Assembly: GCA_020718275.1 (NCBI GenBank)
Contig: DYSI01000003.1
Coordinates: 15,681-79,680, forward strand
DNA from: Draconibacterium orientale
GTDB lineage: Bacteria; Bacteroidota; Bacteroidia; Bacteroidales; UBA1556
Reading direction: 5' to 3'
DNA: 64,000 nucleotides
Within the stretch, counting starts at the first letter, position 1, and each line of letters opens with the position of its first letter. Made by a program: the position numbers and the translations under genes. The notes beneath the pieces are model-generated. The model worked only from the letters and a program-made list of their open reading frames with translations, was not told the DNA's origin and ran no database searches. Shown one piece after another: positions 52,998 through 62,149 of this stretch.

Positions 52998-53285
52998 TTA
53001 GATTTCTTCAGTAATTACTACTTTAGCTAGCAAATCAATGTAGGGGATTAAAAGGTATTTTTTGCCTTCAAATTCAGTAGTTGTGCCTGCAAAATCTTTA
53101 TACAATACTGTATCACCTACTTGTATTTCAGGATTCTCAATAGCACTCATAGCAACTACCTTAGCGATGTTTTTCCTTTCCTTAGCAGTGTCTGGAATGA
53201 TGAGTCCACTGGCGGTTTTTGTTTCTTGTTGGTCTTTGGTAATGTCAAGCAATACATTTTGGTTGACTGGTTGTAATTCTCTCAT
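52998..53285 (-). CDS. Divergent co-chaperonin GroES (Cpn10) family protein
   Basis: Mobile loop KTASGLIIPDTAKE, VGDTVLY..FAGT..EFEGKKYL; no adjacent groEL. Confidence 0.85.
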   Translation of the reverse strand: MRELQPVNQNVLLDITKDQQETKTASGLIIPDTAKERKNIAKVVAMSAIENPEIQVGDTVLYKDFAGTTTEFEGKKYLLIPYIDLLAKVVITEEI

Positions 53286-53315
53286 ATTCAAAACGTTTTA
53301 GAGTTTATATTTATT

Positions 53316-53903
53316 TTATCCTTGTATATTTAGCAATTCGTTTATTCTTTTCTTATCAAATCCGATAATCATTTCGCCTGCAATATCAGTTTGTGGTACG
53401 CCTTGTTGGCCGCTACGTTGCACCATGGCTTGGGCCGCTGCTTGGTCTTTGGACACATCAATATCGTTGAATTTAATATTGTGTTTGCGCAAATGCGTTT
53501 TTAAAGTGGTACACCAGGAGCAGCTGGGGGTCGAATAAACGGTTACCCTTTTTTGGGGTTTGTCATCCGATTTGATCTCCGCTTTATATAGACTCTCCTT
53601 GAACAGATTATGATAAAATTGCTCTCCGTTGCAACCTTTGTAAATATTTATAAGCTGTTCATTGTCAAATTGTAATAAGCTAGGAGCCGAGCTGATTTGA
53701 TAGTGAAAATGAATATCACGGACTTGACTTACATCCACACTTACAATTTGAATTCCTTTGAGGGCTTCTAGGCTTAAACCTAGATTTTGATAAGCACAAT
53801 CACTCTGTTCGCTTCCATTTTTATAAATCAAACACCATGTTTTAGGGCTCTTTTTTAAAGTCTCTTGCAGTTCGCTCAATTGATTAATTGGTAATACTTT
53901 CAT
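53316..53903 (-). CDS. Thioredoxin-like plus glutaredoxin (NrdH/YruB-like) fusion
   Basis: N-terminal Trx fold without CxxC (SEQSDC, SAP cis-Pro); C-terminal VYSTPSCSWC...GVPQ..I.GEMIIGFD. Confidence 0.85.
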   Translation of the reverse strand: MKVLPINQLSELQETLKKSPKTWCLIYKNGSEQSDCAYQNLGLSLEALKGIQIVSVDVSQVRDIHFHYQISSAPSLLQFDNEQLINIYKGCNGEQFYHNLFKESLYKAEIKSDDKPQKRVTVYSTPSCSWCTTLKTHLRKHNIKFNDIDVSKDQAAAQAMVQRSGQQGVPQTDIAGEMIIGFDKKRINELLNIQG

Positions 53904-55740: not shown

Positions 55741-55775
55741 AAAAAAATAAGGCTGCTCTCATCAGAAAGCAGCCT
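55741..55775 (-). terminator. Terminator of the small T9SS gene
   Basis: AGGCTGCT...AGCAGCCT hairpin with an A-run. Confidence 0.65.
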
Positions 55776-55799
55776 CCCAGTATTTAAAAACCTACGATA

Positions 55800-56531
55800 C
55801 TAATGCTGAATTATTAATTTTTTGGAGGAAACTTTCTTATCATCAACTATGATATTGTAAAAATAAACGCCACTTTTTAAAGTTGAAACATCAAAGGTTT
55901 GCTTAGATTCACTATTGATTAATACTTGGCTTAAAAGCAGTGATCCAGTTACATTAAGCACTTCAATACGGGCGGTTTGAGAATCAGCAAATTTATAATC
56001 CAGATTGAAAACTTGGTTTGCTGGATTAGGGTATGCGTTACTTATTTTATAAGTTGATTTTAGATCTTTGGCACTTAATCCGCTGCCAGCATGATATTCA
56101 ATAATTACGGATATTGTATCTGAGGGATTATTTACATCGAAGAAAGTATATCTTACAGCTGATTTACCTGCGTTATTATGGGATTCGTAATCACCAAGAA
56201 AAGCTTTTGCGGTCGCTTTAGAATCAATACGAATGGAGTCAGGAGAAAGGGTTGTTTCGGGAGGGTAGCATTCGAACCAACAAAAAGTATCAAATGCTCC
56301 ATTAACAAGATTTATTACAGTTTTGCGCGCTTTTACGTCCTTATAAACGAGTGCATTATTGGTTATCCAAACATTTACAGAAAATGATGCATCGGCATTG
56401 GTGTTAACTACCGTGACTGTGTCGCCATTATTCAAGGCTAATCCGTTTGGTAAGCTTAAAGAAAAGGTTTGTGCTGATAAGCTAAAGCTTATTAGTAATA
56501 TTAGTATCAGACTGAGAAAAATTCGTTTCAT
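55800..56531 (-). CDS. Small T9SS type A cargo protein with a CWFEC motif
   Basis: Signal peptide ending LSA-Q, Ig-like domain containing FCWFECY, CTD AYPNPAN...SGVYFY...KKLII. Confidence 0.85.
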   Translation of the reverse strand: MKRIFLSLILILLISFSLSAQTFSLSLPNGLALNNGDTVTVVNTNADASFSVNVWITNNALVYKDVKARKTVINLVNGAFDTFCWFECYPPETTLSPDSIRIDSKATAKAFLGDYESHNNAGKSAVRYTFFDVNNPSDTISVIIEYHAGSGLSAKDLKSTYKISNAYPNPANQVFNLDYKFADSQTARIEVLNVTGSLLLSQVLINSESKQTFDVSTLKSGVYFYNIIVDDKKVSSKKLIIQH

Positions 56532-56737
56532 GTAAAATGTACTTGGGTTTAATATTAAATACAAAGGTAAACAAGTTTTTTAGTTTATCATCATATATGG
56601 CTTGATAGAGATTTAAAAAACGTTAAGAACTTCAAATTTTCTTTTTTTTTCGGCTATAGTTATAAAATCAAACTAATCTGTTTGAATCGAAACAATGCAA
56701 AATTCTGAAAAGTATAAAGCTAACAATAGAAAGGGAG

Positions 56738-56770
56738 AAAAAAAAAGGTTGCCGACAAGGCAACCTTTTT
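56738..56770 (-). terminator. Terminator of the Omp28-related gene
   Basis: AAAAAGGTTGCC-GACAA-GGCAACCTTTTT. Confidence 0.8.
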
Positions 56771-56790
56771 AAAAGGATTCTTAAGTGAAC

Positions 56791-58824
56791 TTAGTTGATA
56801 GTAAGTTTCTTAGTGATGGTTTGGTTGTTGATTTGAATTTGGATAGTATATAATCCTTGTGCAAGTTCAGCAACATTAATGCTTTGATTTTGAGCACCTG
56901 CTACCATAAGACCTAAATTCTCATTAGCAACGGTTTGTCCTAGGCTGTTGATGATAACGTAAGTAACGTTTGCATTTTCAGCAAGTTCTAATGATAAATT
57001 TAATTGCTCGTTTGCAGGATTTGGATAAATACTAGCAGCATTGGTTTCTACACTTGTTTGGATGCCAATATTGGTATTGTTGTAAATATTGATATTGTCG
57101 ATATAAAGATTATTGCCATAAGCTGAAATAGCTTTGAAAGAAAGTATCACTTCTGATTTTCCATTGAATGCACTCATGTCAACATTAGCAGTAGCCCAAT
57201 GATTAGCTTCAGGGAAGAAATTGCCAGAAGATACAGCAGGTGAAGTAGCTAAGTCAGCTCCAGCTTTGTCCCAAAGGGTAGTCCATGTGGCACCACAATC
57301 TTCAGAAGCGAGCACTTGTAATCTATCATCTTCGTTAGAATATTGTGCGTAAGCATAATCAAATTTCACTCCAGAGGCAGTATTGCTTGCAAAGTTCAAT
57401 TTGTGAAACATAATTTGAACTGTATTACCAGTATTGATGTTATAAAAGTTAACCAGATAACTTGATAAAGAAGCTGCATAAGCGCCTAAATCAGTAGTTA
57501 AACCAGAAACGCCAGCTTTAGTAAGGGTAAAAGCAGGTTCTTGCGTAGGATTTACAATAATACTATTATCAATTTCAGCGGTATAGTCAGCATAGGATTC
57601 AAAATCTTCGGTGTAAATGGTTGCAAATGGAGTTGCAGGCATCACTAAGAATACGGGAGTTGCGGAAATATTATTTCCAGTTAGAATATCTAAAAGGTGA
57701 GTAACATTAGTTAAGTTTACATTGTACTCGATGGTGTTTGAAGCGGCAGACAGTGAAATGGCAGGGAAAGTAACGGTAGTTGTATTACCGCCCAATAATG
57801 GGGTAGTAACTTGTTGCACCACTGGAGTTCCACCATTGTAGGTATATTGAACATAGAAAGTATCTGCAATTACATTGGAGGTGTTGTTTTTGATGGTAAC
57901 AGAAGGAACAACTGTGTTATCGCACATGGCAGGAATAGTAGTATTATCAGTAGCTTGCATGTCGATGATGCTTACTCCAGCAGGAATTACATAATTCATA
58001 GATGAAATATTTCCAGTTACAATTTCTTGGGTATTCTCGGCGATGAAAGCGATTACTTCAAGATTGCCAAGTGACACAGGAACACCATTGATGTTGGCAG
58101 GAATTTGCCAAGTATAGGTTCTGCTAAAGAAAGTAGATTGTGAGGTAGTATCAATTTGAGCGCCAAATTGACCTGTAATTAAATGACGAAGCATGTGCAT
58201 GTGATTGTATAATCCACTAGGCATAACTTGGCTTGGGTTGCTTGAGCCACCAGTTTGAGGACCTGTCACATTGTTTTGGCTTACAGCCACATTTAATTTC
58301 ATACTGCTGGGGGCGCCTGTACCTGTAAAATATCCTTCAACTAAAACAGTCATTTCGCGTGTGCTAAGATTGATAGTGGTAGCAGCAGCAATGTTTACAT
58401 AAGAAGGTTTGCTAATTACAGTGTCAACGGCATCAGCCCAATGGCTTCTACTCATGGCAGTTCCAGGAGTTGTGGTGCTTTGTGACCAACCAGAAAATAA
58501 ATGACGATTTACAGTACCTGCAGGATAACCAGCCAAACTAGTTTGTGCTTCGATAGCAGTTCCAAAACTAGTTCTGAAGTCAGGCTCACCAGCAGCGGGT
58601 GTGGCAAAACTACCCACATGAATATTTATTGCAAAATAATCATTTGGATTTGCAGTTTGAATGTTGTTGGAAATTAAGTGGCCGTCTGGGCAATAGGTGC
58701 AATGAATTCCAGTGAATTCTTCCAAAATAGCATTTCTGTTTTCAGCAGTGGTACTCACAATGGTTTGAGCAATCATGCTGAAACTTGCAATTACCGTTAA
58801 AAAGGATAGGAAAAGTTTTTTCAT
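56791..58824 (-). CDS. Omp28-related thioredoxin-fold protein with T9SS CTD
   Basis: Signal peptide, LEEFTGIHCTYCPDGH, GYPAGTVNR, HMHMLR, GNNLYIDNI adhesin-like domain, IYPNPAN...KKLTI CTD. Confidence 0.88.
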   Translation of the reverse strand: MKKLFLSFLTVIASFSMIAQTIVSTTAENRNAILEEFTGIHCTYCPDGHLISNNIQTANPNDYFAINIHVGSFATPAAGEPDFRTSFGTAIEAQTSLAGYPAGTVNRHLFSGWSQSTTTPGTAMSRSHWADAVDTVISKPSYVNIAAATTINLSTREMTVLVEGYFTGTGAPSSMKLNVAVSQNNVTGPQTGGSSNPSQVMPSGLYNHMHMLRHLITGQFGAQIDTTSQSTFFSRTYTWQIPANINGVPVSLGNLEVIAFIAENTQEIVTGNISSMNYVIPAGVSIIDMQATDNTTIPAMCDNTVVPSVTIKNNTSNVIADTFYVQYTYNGGTPVVQQVTTPLLGGNTTTVTFPAISLSAASNTIEYNVNLTNVTHLLDILTGNNISATPVFLVMPATPFATIYTEDFESYADYTAEIDNSIIVNPTQEPAFTLTKAGVSGLTTDLGAYAASLSSYLVNFYNINTGNTVQIMFHKLNFASNTASGVKFDYAYAQYSNEDDRLQVLASEDCGATWTTLWDKAGADLATSPAVSSGNFFPEANHWATANVDMSAFNGKSEVILSFKAISAYGNNLYIDNINIYNNTNIGIQTSVETNAASIYPNPANEQLNLSLELAENANVTYVIINSLGQTVANENLGLMVAGAQNQSINVAELAQGLYTIQIQINNQTITKKLTIN

Positions 58825-59064
58825 GGTTTATTAGAATTTGATTAGTAAATGTTTGAGGCGCGAAAATAATTAATTATGCGATATATGTTTATTTTTTTTC
58901 ATTTGGCAATGATTTTTAAAAATATAACAAAATAATCGTTTGGCAACCTTTTTGTTAGTAATGGCATGGTTAAATTTTATTATTTTTGCCTGTTTTTCAC
59001 ACAACACACCACTTTAAAGAATACTTAGTTTAGATATCATAATTATCAATTTAAATTACAATAA

Positions 59065-59586
59065 ATGAAGGTTTTACATTGGATTACCATGATGATTTTC
59101 TTAACACTTTTCGGGTCTTTTACCGCTGATCAAAAAAGTCCAATTCCATCTGTTGATGTCAAAAGTTTAGATGGAAAAATTATTAACACCTCTAGTTTTC
59201 AAAACGATGGTAATCCAATTATCATAAGTTTTTGGGCAACTTGGTGCAAGCCATGTATTCAAGAATTAACCACCATTAGCGAGGTATATCCTGAGTGGCA
59301 AGAAGAGACTGGGGTGAAACTAATCGCTATTTCTGTAGACAATTCGCGTACTTCAAATGCGGTGCTCCCTTTAGTAAATGGCAAAGCTTGGGATTATGAA
59401 GTTTATTTAGATGAGAATAGTGATTTCAAGCGTGCAATGGGGGTGAATGTGGTGCCTCATACTTTTTTGGTGAATGGAAAAGGGGAAATAGTATGGCAGC
59501 ATACCTCTTTCACCGAAGGTTCTGAATTGGAGCTAATTGCCCTCGTTCGTAAGCTCAAGAATGGTGAAGAGATCCCTAGTCACTAA
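59065..59586 (+). CDS. TlpA-family disulfide reductase
   Basis: N-terminal signal/anchor, FWATWCKPC, VPHTF cis-Pro. Confidence 0.92.
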   Translation: MKVLHWITMMIFLTLFGSFTADQKSPIPSVDVKSLDGKIINTSSFQNDGNPIIISFWATWCKPCIQELTTISEVYPEWQEETGVKLIAISVDNSRTSNAVLPLVNGKAWDYEVYLDENSDFKRAMGVNVVPHTFLVNGKGEIVWQHTSFTEGSELELIALVRKLKNGEEIPSH

Positions 59587-59617
59587 TGATTGTATTCAAT
59601 TAATTATCCGATAGCCG

Positions 59618-61264
59618 ATGAAATATATTTTACGATTTTCGCTACTTTTGTTTTTCCTACAAAGTTTTTTCTTTAATCTTTCAGCCCAGTTACTTGGTGG
59701 AGGCGAGGTGCATGGTAGTTTTCAAACCGATGGTCAGCTATACCAAAAAGACTCGGTGATAGGGGCTGAGTCGATTGCTGAGAAGGTTGCTTTTAACAGT
59801 TTCTTCGAGATGCGGTATATCAACAAGAATTTTGAAGCAGGCATGCGGTACGAATTGTTTATGCCACCCATGCAAGGCTATGATGTGCGCTGGAAAGGAG
59901 CTGGTTTTGCCAATAAATACGTTAGGTATAATGGTGAAAAATTGGAGGTAACCGCAGGTAATTTTTACGAACAGTTTGGTTCAGGGATGATTTTACGTTC
60001 TTACCAAGAATGGAATCTTGGTTTTGACAATGCCCTCAATGGAGTACGGGTAAAATATAAGCTTAAGGGTTTGACAATCACCGGTTTGGTAGCCAAACAA
60101 CGCTTCTACTGGGACTTAGGTCCAGGAACCATAAGAGGGGTAGATGCGCAAGTATCCTTGAACGAGGTGATTGACAAATTGAAAGATAAAAAGACGAGAA
60201 TTGGACTTGGTGGAAGCTTCGTGAGTCGTTATCAAACAGATCAAGATCCACTGTATGTATTGCCAGAAAATGTTGGCGCTTTTGCAGGTAGATTTGAAAT
60301 TTATAGAGCCGCCTTTAACATGAAGTTTGAAGCCAGTGGAAAAATAAATGACCCGAATGCTTCTAATAATATGATTTATAAAAATGGAAATGCCGCACTC
60401 CTCGAACTCGGGTATTCAAAGAAAGGCTTTGGGATGACCTTGCAAGCGGCTCGTGCTGATAATATGGATTTTCGCTCAAATCGTGCTTCCTCGGGTTTCG
60501 ATTTGCCAATAAGTTATATTCCAGCCATGACCGCTCAACATGCCTACAGCTTGGCGGCTATGTATCCTTATGCATCACAAGCCAATGGGCAAATGGGATT
60601 GCAGGCTAATATATTTTATAAAATTAAAAAGGGAAAAACCCTTGGCGGTAAATACGGGACTAATATCAATATTAATTATGCATTATCACAAAGCATTTAT
60701 AAACAAGCTATTAATGATTCAACTTATATCGGTCAAAATGGTACACTTGGTTATGAAACTGATCTATTTAAAATAGGTGAGGATCGCTATTATTCCGATT
60801 TTAACATTAAAGTACAGCGAAAACTTTCTAAGAAATGGGACGTTTCATTGATGTTTATGAATGTATTTTACAATATGCTTATCAACGAAGGCCACCAAGA
60901 AGCGGATGTGCATGCCAATATTGGAATTGCTGATATTTGGTGGAAATACAAACCATTTAATTCTTTACATTTTGAAATTCAAGAACTTGTGACTCAACAA
61001 GATCAAGGCAATTGGTCGTCCGTAATGATTGAATACAATCGCAAAGGTTTGTTTGCGGCGGTAATTGCGCTTTATAATCAAGGTATTTCTGGACAGTCTG
61101 ACCCCGTGCTTTACCCTTCGGTTACCACTGGTTATACGCAAGGTGCCAATCGTTTTTCGCTCAGTTATGGAAAACAGCGTGAAGGAATTCTCTGTGTTGG
61201 CGGTGTTTGTCGTGCAGTGCCTGCGGCCAATGGATTTTCAATTACAATCAATAGTAGTTTCTAA
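59618..61264 (+). CDS. DUF6029-family outer-membrane beta-barrel protein
   Basis: Signal peptide, GNFYEQFGSGMILR, amphipathic strands, C-terminal GKQREGILCVGGVCR...SSF. Confidence 0.82.
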   Translation: MKYILRFSLLLFFLQSFFFNLSAQLLGGGEVHGSFQTDGQLYQKDSVIGAESIAEKVAFNSFFEMRYINKNFEAGMRYELFMPPMQGYDVRWKGAGFANKYVRYNGEKLEVTAGNFYEQFGSGMILRSYQEWNLGFDNALNGVRVKYKLKGLTITGLVAKQRFYWDLGPGTIRGVDAQVSLNEVIDKLKDKKTRIGLGGSFVSRYQTDQDPLYVLPENVGAFAGRFEIYRAAFNMKFEASGKINDPNASNNMIYKNGNAALLELGYSKKGFGMTLQAARADNMDFRSNRASSGFDLPISYIPAMTAQHAYSLAAMYPYASQANGQMGLQANIFYKIKKGKTLGGKYGTNININYALSQSIYKQAINDSTYIGQNGTLGYETDLFKIGEDRYYSDFNIKVQRKLSKKWDVSLMFMNVFYNMLINEGHQEADVHANIGIADIWWKYKPFNSLHFEIQELVTQQDQGNWSSVMIEYNRKGLFAAVIALYNQGISGQSDPVLYPSVTTGYTQGANRFSLSYGKQREGILCVGGVCRAVPAANGFSITINSSF

Positions 61265-61276
61265 ATTTATATCATA

Positions 61277-62149
61277 ATGAAATCAAAACTCAATTTGCTT
61301 TTTCTTGGCTTCTTACTTTCGATCTTTGCATTAAGTTCATGCGATAAAGTTGAGCCTCCATATATGCTCAGCAATGGAAACATCATCAGCGGGGATACTG
61401 TTCGAAAAATATTTTTTGAAGATTATACTGGACACAAATGTCCGAATTGTCCTCAAGCACATAAGATTTTAGAGGACCTTAAGGTGGTTTATGGCGATCG
61501 GATTGTGGTTGTGGCCATTCATACTGGCTTTTTTTCAATGACAAGTTCAGCACCATGGGATTATGATTTCACCACCAGTGATGGTGAGGCTATCTCTGCC
61601 TTTTATGGCGCTAATTCGGTTGGGTTGCCCAAGGGAGTGGTGAATCGCAAAAAGGTAAATGGAAGTTATTTGATAGATAGAGCTGAATTTGCCACCGCAG
61701 TTAGCTTAGCTTTAGATTCAACGCCTTTATTGCCTGAAATTTACATTGAGTTAGACGGCACTTATCATAGCCTCGATAGTACTATTTCTGTGGAAGCAAA
61801 AATGACTGCCCTCTCGGATTTGCCATCTGGTAAATACAATATATCACTGATAGTTACCGAAAGTGAGATAGTTAAACCACAGAAAAACACCGATGCAAGT
61901 CTTGGAACCACGCCTGAGATTTTAGATTATCATCATGAACATGTTTATCGGGCGGCTATCAATAATCCATGGGGTGAGGAGTTTGCCAATTCTACTATAA
62001 GCAATGGTCAAACATTTCAAAAGAGCTATACGAATTTCAAAATTGGTGCCGATTGGAATCCAAGCCAATTGCACCTAGTAGCAGTAGTGTACTATGCAGA
62101 TGGAGCCAATGAAAAGCAAGTGATACAAGCGCAACAAATTGATTTGTAA
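61277..62149 (+). CDS. Omp28-family outer-membrane lipoprotein
   Basis: Lipobox LSSC-DKVE, FEDYTGHKCPNCP, GLPKGVVNR, YHHEHVYR. Confidence 0.88.
   Translation: MKSKLNLLFLGFLLSIFALSSCDKVEPPYMLSNGNIISGDTVRKIFFEDYTGHKCPNCPQAHKILEDLKVVYGDRIVVVAIHTGFFSMTSSAPWDYDFTTSDGEAISAFYGANSVGLPKGVVNRKKVNGSYLIDRAEFATAVSLALDSTPLLPEIYIELDGTYHSLDSTISVEAKMTALSDLPSGKYNISLIVTESEIVKPQKNTDASLGTTPEILDYHHEHVYRAAINNPWGEEFANSTISNGQTFQKSYTNFKIGADWNPSQLHLVAVVYYADGANEKQVIQAQQIDL

Follow-up and report, generated by a model that had tools for sequence, protein, structure and literature searches.

A five-gene locus around a DUF6029 outer-membrane barrel in Draconibacterium orientale and its possible role as a thiol-disulfide relay to the cell surface

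The window analyzed here is a stretch of 64,000 nucleotides from Draconibacterium orientale (Bacteroidota; assembly GCA_020718275.1, contig DYSI01000003.1, positions 15,681 to 79,680 of the forward strand). Between its positions 55,800 and 62,149 lie five adjacent genes for envelope proteins, among them a TlpA-type thioredoxin, a member of the family DUF6029 and an Omp28 lipoprotein. An initial annotation had claimed that each of the five proteins carries a close pair of cysteines and had read the locus as a candidate relay across the outer membrane. All five open reading frames (ORFs) were found again at these positions by ORF listing and Pfam, and the cysteine inventory agrees with the claimed pairs.

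Genes and cysteine pairs of the locus

The features of the locus are the following; T9SS stands for type IX secretion system, CTD for its C-terminal cargo domain and Ig for immunoglobulin.

55800..56531, minus strand: PorA-family T9SS cargo, 243 aa, with signal peptide, Ig-like domain bearing a Cys hairpin, and CTD (T9SS CTD in Pfam, E 8e-16)
56268..56282, minus strand: C84-WFE-C88 pair of the PorA-like protein, aligned with CFGQC of PorA (Cys92/Cys96)
56791..58824, minus strand: T9SS-secreted thioredoxin of the Omp28/HBP35 type (T9SS-Omp28), 677 aa, with thioredoxin and Ig domains, middle beta domains, and CTD (Pfam, NCBIfam)
58690..58701, minus strand: CTYC active-site motif (C42/C45) of T9SS-Omp28 (cysteine inventory)
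59065..59586, plus strand: TlpA/ResA-type thioredoxin, predicted periplasmic, 173 aa, WCKPC (Pfam AhpC-TSA/Redoxin)
59245..59256, plus strand: CKPC (C61/C64) of TlpA (cysteine inventory)
59377..59379, plus strand: TlpA N105, which co-varies with barrel S267 (covariation)
59618..61264, plus strand: DUF6029 (PF19494), predicted 24-strand outer-membrane beta-barrel (Pfam E 1.4e-169, 565.7 bits)
60416..60418, plus strand: barrel S267, where TlpA is predicted to dock, in the periplasmic turn between beta12 and beta13 (covariation, model)
61193..61210, plus strand: C526-VGGV-C531 beta-hairpin in the last outer loop of DUF6029 (alignment, model)
61277..62149, plus strand: Omp28 lipoprotein, 290 aa, with lipid C22, thioredoxin motif CPNC, and Ig domain (Pfam)
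55749..55776, minus strand: terminator-like hairpin 3' of the PorA-like gene, 12 pairs and a T tail
56742..56770, minus strand: terminator-like hairpin that separates the genes of the two secreted proteins

The description of these proteins as otherwise nearly Cys-free also holds, as each has at most two cysteines beyond its pair. The PorA-like protein (C84/C88, CWFEC), TlpA (C61/C64), and DUF6029 (C526/C531) contain two cysteines each, T9SS-Omp28 contains four (C42/C45 of CTYC, C301, and C510), and the Omp28 lipoprotein three (lipid C22 and C55/C58). Of the 1211 ORFs with 170 aa or more in the same genome, 157 have cysteines 2-4 residues apart; the count is 31 among 304 ORFs with a crudely predicted signal peptide and 10 among the 42 CTD proteins. 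A run of five adjacent genes with such pairs, all of them conserved, is not chance.

Gaps of 31 nt between tlpA and the DUF6029 gene and of 12 nt between the latter and omp28 support the three-gene operon proposed at the outset. The two divergent proteins have the claimed T9SS CTDs according to Pfam; their genes may be separate transcripts, since the terminator-like hairpin at 56770-56742 lies between them (seven such hairpins were found vs. 4.8 expected). For the small PorA-like gene, the start codon ATG 56531 is more likely than TTG 56564, since the latter is overlapped by a TAnnTTTG motif; across the window this motif is not enriched (100 vs. 89 expected). The locus is not an assembly artefact, because all of its 30 bins are covered, with few differences, by contigs from three further DNA runs. 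The source genome is 71% complete.

TlpA belongs to a family with an exported Redoxin fold comprising WCxPC, an insertion, and the cis-Pro, and P131 at the cis-Pro position is invariant. It matches the structure 2M72 (E 2e-50), and the NCBIfam equivalogs ResA, DsbE, and TlpA are all matched below their cut-offs. A lipobox-like Cys occurs in only 4 of 238 TlpA sequences, in line with a periplasmic location. The genome encodes DsbD on contig C46; cytochrome c assembly genes are absent from the locus, and PF01578 was not found in the incomplete genome.

The Omp28 lipoprotein combines the N-terminal thioredoxin CxxC with the Omp28 Ig domain and is a full-length homologue of HBP35 (5Y1A, E 1.2e-8); the Omp28 structure 2R2C, like 5Y1A from Porphyromonas gingivalis, is matched over its full length with E 5e-33. 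The Omp28/HBP35 family model NF033782 reaches 143.7 bits, just below its cut-off of 150. T9SS-Omp28, which has the signal peptide and type A CTD of T9SS cargo, differs from HBP35 by extra domains, and its middle beta domains are weakly matched as choice-of-anchor J / MAM-like. Assignment to the Omp28-related selenoproteins (NF045500) was rejected at 47.9 and 27 bits vs. a cut-off of 200, which none of 301 genomes exceeded. Two further Omp28-type CxxC proteins are encoded elsewhere in the genome (G000 C22:9771-11930 and C47:3257-4030), one a T9SS cargo and one a lipoprotein, and are candidate clients. Lipoproteins of the family carry D/E at position +2 in 79 of 90 cases and a net negative charge in 74 of 90. 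Their N-termini resemble, without matching, the Bacteroidota surface-export signal described in PMC5080379, which consists of K-(D/E)2 or Q-A-(D/E)2 after the lipid Cys together with negative charge; the N-terminus in the window, CDKVEP, lacks the minimal motif.

The small secreted protein has the fold of the Ig-like N-domain of PorA (PGN_0123 / PG2172, 6KJK) followed by a CTD and is thus of PorA type, at 13% identity. The N-terminal Ig domain of DsbD was not among the 50 structural matches listed for it. PorA-like domains keep both cysteines although their spacing varies from 3 to 11 residues. Fusion of this domain to Omp28 was found in locus L038 (G169:C105, 5060-9836), an expanded cluster with an Omp28, PorA-like, and CTD fusion, further Omp28 genes, and one protein in which the PorA-like domain is repeated three times in tandem, with a Cys pair in every copy. 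Far from DUF6029, a PorA-like gene is paired with an Omp28-type gene in two genomes (G207:C1:935194-938484 and G167:C1:3981755-3983766), suggesting a two-gene sub-module.

Conservation and linkage of the module

The cysteine pair of DUF6029 is among the most conserved features of the family. The protein in the window is matched by Pfam over the cut-off and at full length (model positions 6-538). A profile search yielded 2983 clusters at E <=0.001, and DUF6029 is present in 79 of 301 genomes of the phylum sample and in 298 of 401 genomes of the class sample, the latter count including two unpublished genomes (G380 and G450) that entered no other part of the analysis. In 148 aligned sequences with identities down to 15%, seven columns are invariant, namely five glycines and C526/C531, with G523, G529, and G539 flanking the pair; any other Cys column is occupied in at most 5 of the 148. 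This alignment omits three genes that are frameshifted or split, a mis-called locus, and 27 of 119 matches (fragments among them); in the three broken genes, the downstream frame or piece still contains the pair. The pair was found in 263 of 269 database matches, five of the misses being truncated and the sixth being P0254, a homologue in which Ser replaces the first hairpin Cys and the second is kept. It was also found in all 148 further loci selected by a hidden Markov model, and it is located 17 residues from the C-terminus in 538 of 543 sequences. The 80 named loci had been chosen partly by the Cys motif and were excluded from the motif counts. Barrel genes broken by a frameshift or stop in L052, L061, L082, and L138 are probably assembly errors.

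Linkage was counted in 289 loci, including those cut by contig ends. A tlpA gene adjoins the barrel gene in 239 of these (233 on the same strand), Omp28 follows 3' of the barrel in 232, and both are present in 202. The five-gene form is common as well, since a PorA-like gene is present in 28, and a CTD-bearing thioredoxin in 29, of the 53 named loci that extend 5 kb or more upstream. All 49 genomes with an Omp28 over cut-off carry DUF6029, compared with 79/301 overall; at E <=0.001 for Omp28 the proportion is 53/61. If family f29 is set aside, Omp28 is present in 51 of 52 DUF6029 genomes. Within f29, a Redoxin-type lipoprotein and a Redoxin-CTD protein replace Omp28 in 10 of 11 sampled loci, and one of the 11 has no CTD gene in view. 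Similarly, the T9SS thioredoxin cargo is of Omp28 type in 59 cases (52 with CxxC, most others being cut by locus ends) and of TlpA type in 24, all with CxxC. Because the thioredoxin families are exchanged in this way, the conserved element is the CxxC and not the family. Kin genomes are not independent, and the co-occurrence counts are therefore given without p-values. Both sequence-level expectations attached to the initial annotation, that the pairs be kept and that the genes occur together across Bacteroidota, were borne out.

In the phylum sample, the other 78 genomes with DUF6029 all contain SprA, but DUF6029 is found in only 78 of 235 SprA-positive genomes, from which it follows that DUF6029 is an accessory of T9SS-bearing cells. 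SprA was not found in the 71%-complete genome studied here, which holds 42 CTD proteins and three C25 peptidases.

The initial annotation had also pointed to a similar arrangement around omp28 in P. gingivalis. Published locus tags fit such an arrangement (PG2172, PorA; PG2173, Omp28; PG2174, uncharacterized; PG2175, thioredoxin-domain protein), with PG2174 as the putative DUF6029 protein.

Among the 91 module neighbors scanned, there is no recurring transporter or catabolic gene. Neighbors seen in single genomes encode MsrB (L040:6700-7239), a DsbA-like protein (L091:7718-8356), and a pyridine-nucleotide disulfide oxidoreductase (L085:7495-8898). A gene for a small outer-membrane beta-barrel follows omp28 or the barrel gene in L071, L076, and L040 and is absent here. 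In loci L126 and L145, tlpA is duplicated and a CTD protein carries a pair of Cys hairpin motifs, of which one is barrel-like (CVGxxC). In the window, a 195-aa fusion of a CxxC-less thioredoxin-like domain with a YruB-type glutaredoxin (CSWC) is encoded at 53316-53903 on the minus strand; it has no signal peptide and is thus cytoplasmic, and it was not seen to recur beside the barrel. A GroES (Cpn10) gene lies at 52998-53291 on the minus strand, with no groEL adjacent.

Predicted barrel and covariation with TlpA

Covariation and AlphaFold2 both predict a DUF6029 barrel of 24 strands. The model has no plug domain, and its loops L3 and L7 fold inward. Residue I524 of the cysteine hairpin couples with A314 of L7, which in turn couples with the inner wall; the hairpin block has a predicted local distance difference test (pLDDT) score of 84 and cross-strand hairpin geometry. 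The best structural matches are the fimbrial ushers FimD/PapC and channels of the OprD family. Fimbrial ushers share the 24-strand size, but at 8% identity, a root-mean-square deviation of 4-6 A, and without plug or chaperone-binding domains in DUF6029 the likeness is that of generic barrels.

In 236 tlpA-barrel pairs, the top coupling connects TlpA N105 with barrel S267 (z 11.4 vs. a maximum of 10.5 in 24 controls). With the first 120 pairs its rank was 12 of 78,374, and it came out on top with 116 held-out pairs, which come from kin genomes. Among 21 independent tree pairs, Asn/Asp at TlpA 105 changed together with Ser/Thr at barrel 267 in 12 cases in the same direction and in none in the opposite direction, and position 105 is the best of 102 TlpA columns (11.7 vs. 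6.5 for the other 101 given the same freedom). These sequence data suggest that TlpA probably docks directly on the periplasmic rim of the barrel.

A possible relay across the outer membrane

We lean slightly towards reading the five-gene module as a thiol-disulfide relay that leads from the periplasm through the barrel to the cell surface. A relay best explains the combination of a periplasmic thioredoxin, interchangeable exported thioredoxins, and one invariant dithiol between them. DsbD would reduce TlpA, as expected from family knowledge, and TlpA helix 97-106 would dock on the beta12-beta13 turn at the periplasmic rim, as the covariation indicates. TlpA could then reduce the C526-C531 hairpin, which is predicted to project into the lumen from the last of the outer loops. 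In the weakest step, this hairpin of about 19 residues beside the barrel seam would either swing or be reached from outside and would reduce a surface thioredoxin, which may be the Omp28 lipoprotein or the T9SS cargo. Finally, the PorA-like Ig domain might shuttle electrons between surface thioredoxins via its own Cys hairpin. The likely task of such a chain would be to maintain thiol enzymes of the surface, and proteins that bind heme or metals, in the reduced state.

The resulting alternation of thioredoxin, hairpin, thioredoxin, hairpin, and thioredoxin would follow the logic of DsbD. In DsbD/CcdA, as in the proposed role of DUF6029, a membrane protein with one Cys pair links thioredoxin-fold partners on its two sides, Cys pairs of thioredoxins alternate with those of other proteins or domains, and electrons pass to TlpA, ResA, or CcmG, to which the periplasmic partner here corresponds in type. 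In contrast, DsbD/CcdA consists of inner-membrane helices (PF02683), whereas DUF6029 is an all-beta outer-membrane barrel without a match to any DsbD family, for which two-sided access and electron transfer are hypothetical. The MtrAB conduit (6R2Q) crosses the outer membrane with a multiheme cytochrome; the five proteins here lack CxxCH, and the proposed carrier is the barrel's own dithiol.

Several observations weigh against the relay. No covariation above controls was found in 217 barrel-Omp28 pairs (maximum 9.0). Of the interpretation first put forward, the fitting compartments, kept cysteines, and linked genes stand, while a redox-active barrel pair, its access to both sides, and its contact with Omp28 are hypothetical. 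In the model, L3 and L7 appear to shut the outer half of the lumen; the invariant C526/C531 yield no covariation signal, and the depth of the hairpin tip is for this reason not fixed. No selenocysteine form was among the 121 pattern matches listed. For TlpA, the signal depends on a single pair: the patch score without N105-S267 (10.3) is within controls, the couplings neighboring it were not replicated in the held-out pairs (ranks 219-2237), whose genomes are kin, the statistic for both halves exceeds controls only narrowly (6.4 vs. 6.2), and a test on sister tips of the tree is weak (5/17 vs. 11/61). DUF6029 is missing from most SprA-positive genomes. PorA-like genomes carry DUF6029 in 31 of 33 cases, but 17 of the 33 together with the window supplied the profile, and the unbiased count is about 12/14. 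PorA activates PorY-PorX-SigP through its CTD, and PorXY activation does not require any of its four cysteines (PMC12152298). As a surface T9SS protein, HBP35 reduces insulin in a Cys-dependent manner, yet gingipain activity was normal in hbp35 mutants, and no electron donor is named in the accessible part of that study (PMC2907840).

Among the alternatives, DUF6029 might be a redox-gated channel or a one-sided reductase, with no passage of electrons from protein to protein outward. Once reduced by TlpA, the hairpin would either open the pore or pass its electrons to a small disulfide or a thiol-bound metal on its way in, with Omp28 as a capture lid. This explanation, which we consider unlikely, leaves unaccounted the CxxC thioredoxins of two families as constant partners and the PorA hairpin, and the scanned neighbors offer no recurring transporter or catabolic gene. 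It seems quite unlikely, too, that DUF6029 is an usher-like export or assembly pore for the Omp28 or thioredoxin lipoprotein, in which TlpA resolves a mixed disulfide between hairpin and cargo: the downstream partner, directly 3' of the barrel, is itself a T9SS cargo with its own signal in 12 of 232 loci, the model is without usher plug and chaperone-binding domains, and the acidic N-terminus of the lipoproteins is like the general Bacteroidota export signal (PMC5080379).

An invariant cross-strand Cys pair with a GG turn can also be structural, in which case the locus would serve co-regulated envelope redox maintenance, with TlpA proof-reading disulfides before export. The confident hairpin geometry and the dispensable PorA cysteines favor this explanation. 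We nevertheless judge it distinctly unlikely, as a sole structural Cys pair that surpasses every other feature in conservation at 15-20% identity would be unusual, P0254 keeps a single Cys, linkage is near-obligate (49/49), and TlpA co-varies with the rim of the folded barrel. An inward relay, in which surface thioredoxins oxidize or isomerize secreted disulfides and electrons enter via the barrel, is very improbable. TlpA/ResA-type CxPC proteins are normally reductants fed by DsbD and would be poor electron acceptors. HBP35 reduces insulin in vitro, whereas its complementation of an Escherichia coli dsbA mutant, as cited in PMC2907840, and the many Cys-rich CTD cargoes of the genome would fit the inward direction. 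Polysaccharide export, proposed from an HHpred likeness to plug-less Wzi barrels in the only work naming DUF6029 (PMC9603273), is hardly credible; Wzi-type porins have 18 strands and lie beside outer-membrane polysaccharide export (OPX) genes, whereas here there are 24 strands and no OPX family among the 91 neighbors.

Known systems move electrons through the inner membrane by means of thiols (DsbD/CcdA) and through the outer membrane by means of hemes (Mtr). A literature search returned no thiol relay across an outer membrane and no description of the five-gene system, and in the accessible literature no reductant is named for the surface thioredoxins (HBP35, Omp28) and cysteine peptidases of Bacteroidota. 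The relay gives DUF6029 a testable function with named residues (C526, C531, S267, and N105) in a module that occurs in most sampled genomes of the class and, as judged from locus tags, also in P. gingivalis; neighbors that appear to be structurally solved there include Omp28 (2R2C) and PorA (6KJK). It also offers a role for the unexplained Ig domain of PorA. The chances are evenly balanced that DUF6029 represents the first thiol-disulfide electron transporter of an outer membrane, which would be reduced by a docked periplasmic thioredoxin and would in turn reduce surface thioredoxins. The NADPH-thioredoxin-DsbD chain would then extend outside the cell in most Bacteroidia lineages, and surface shuttles of the PorA type may tie redox state to T9SS regulation.

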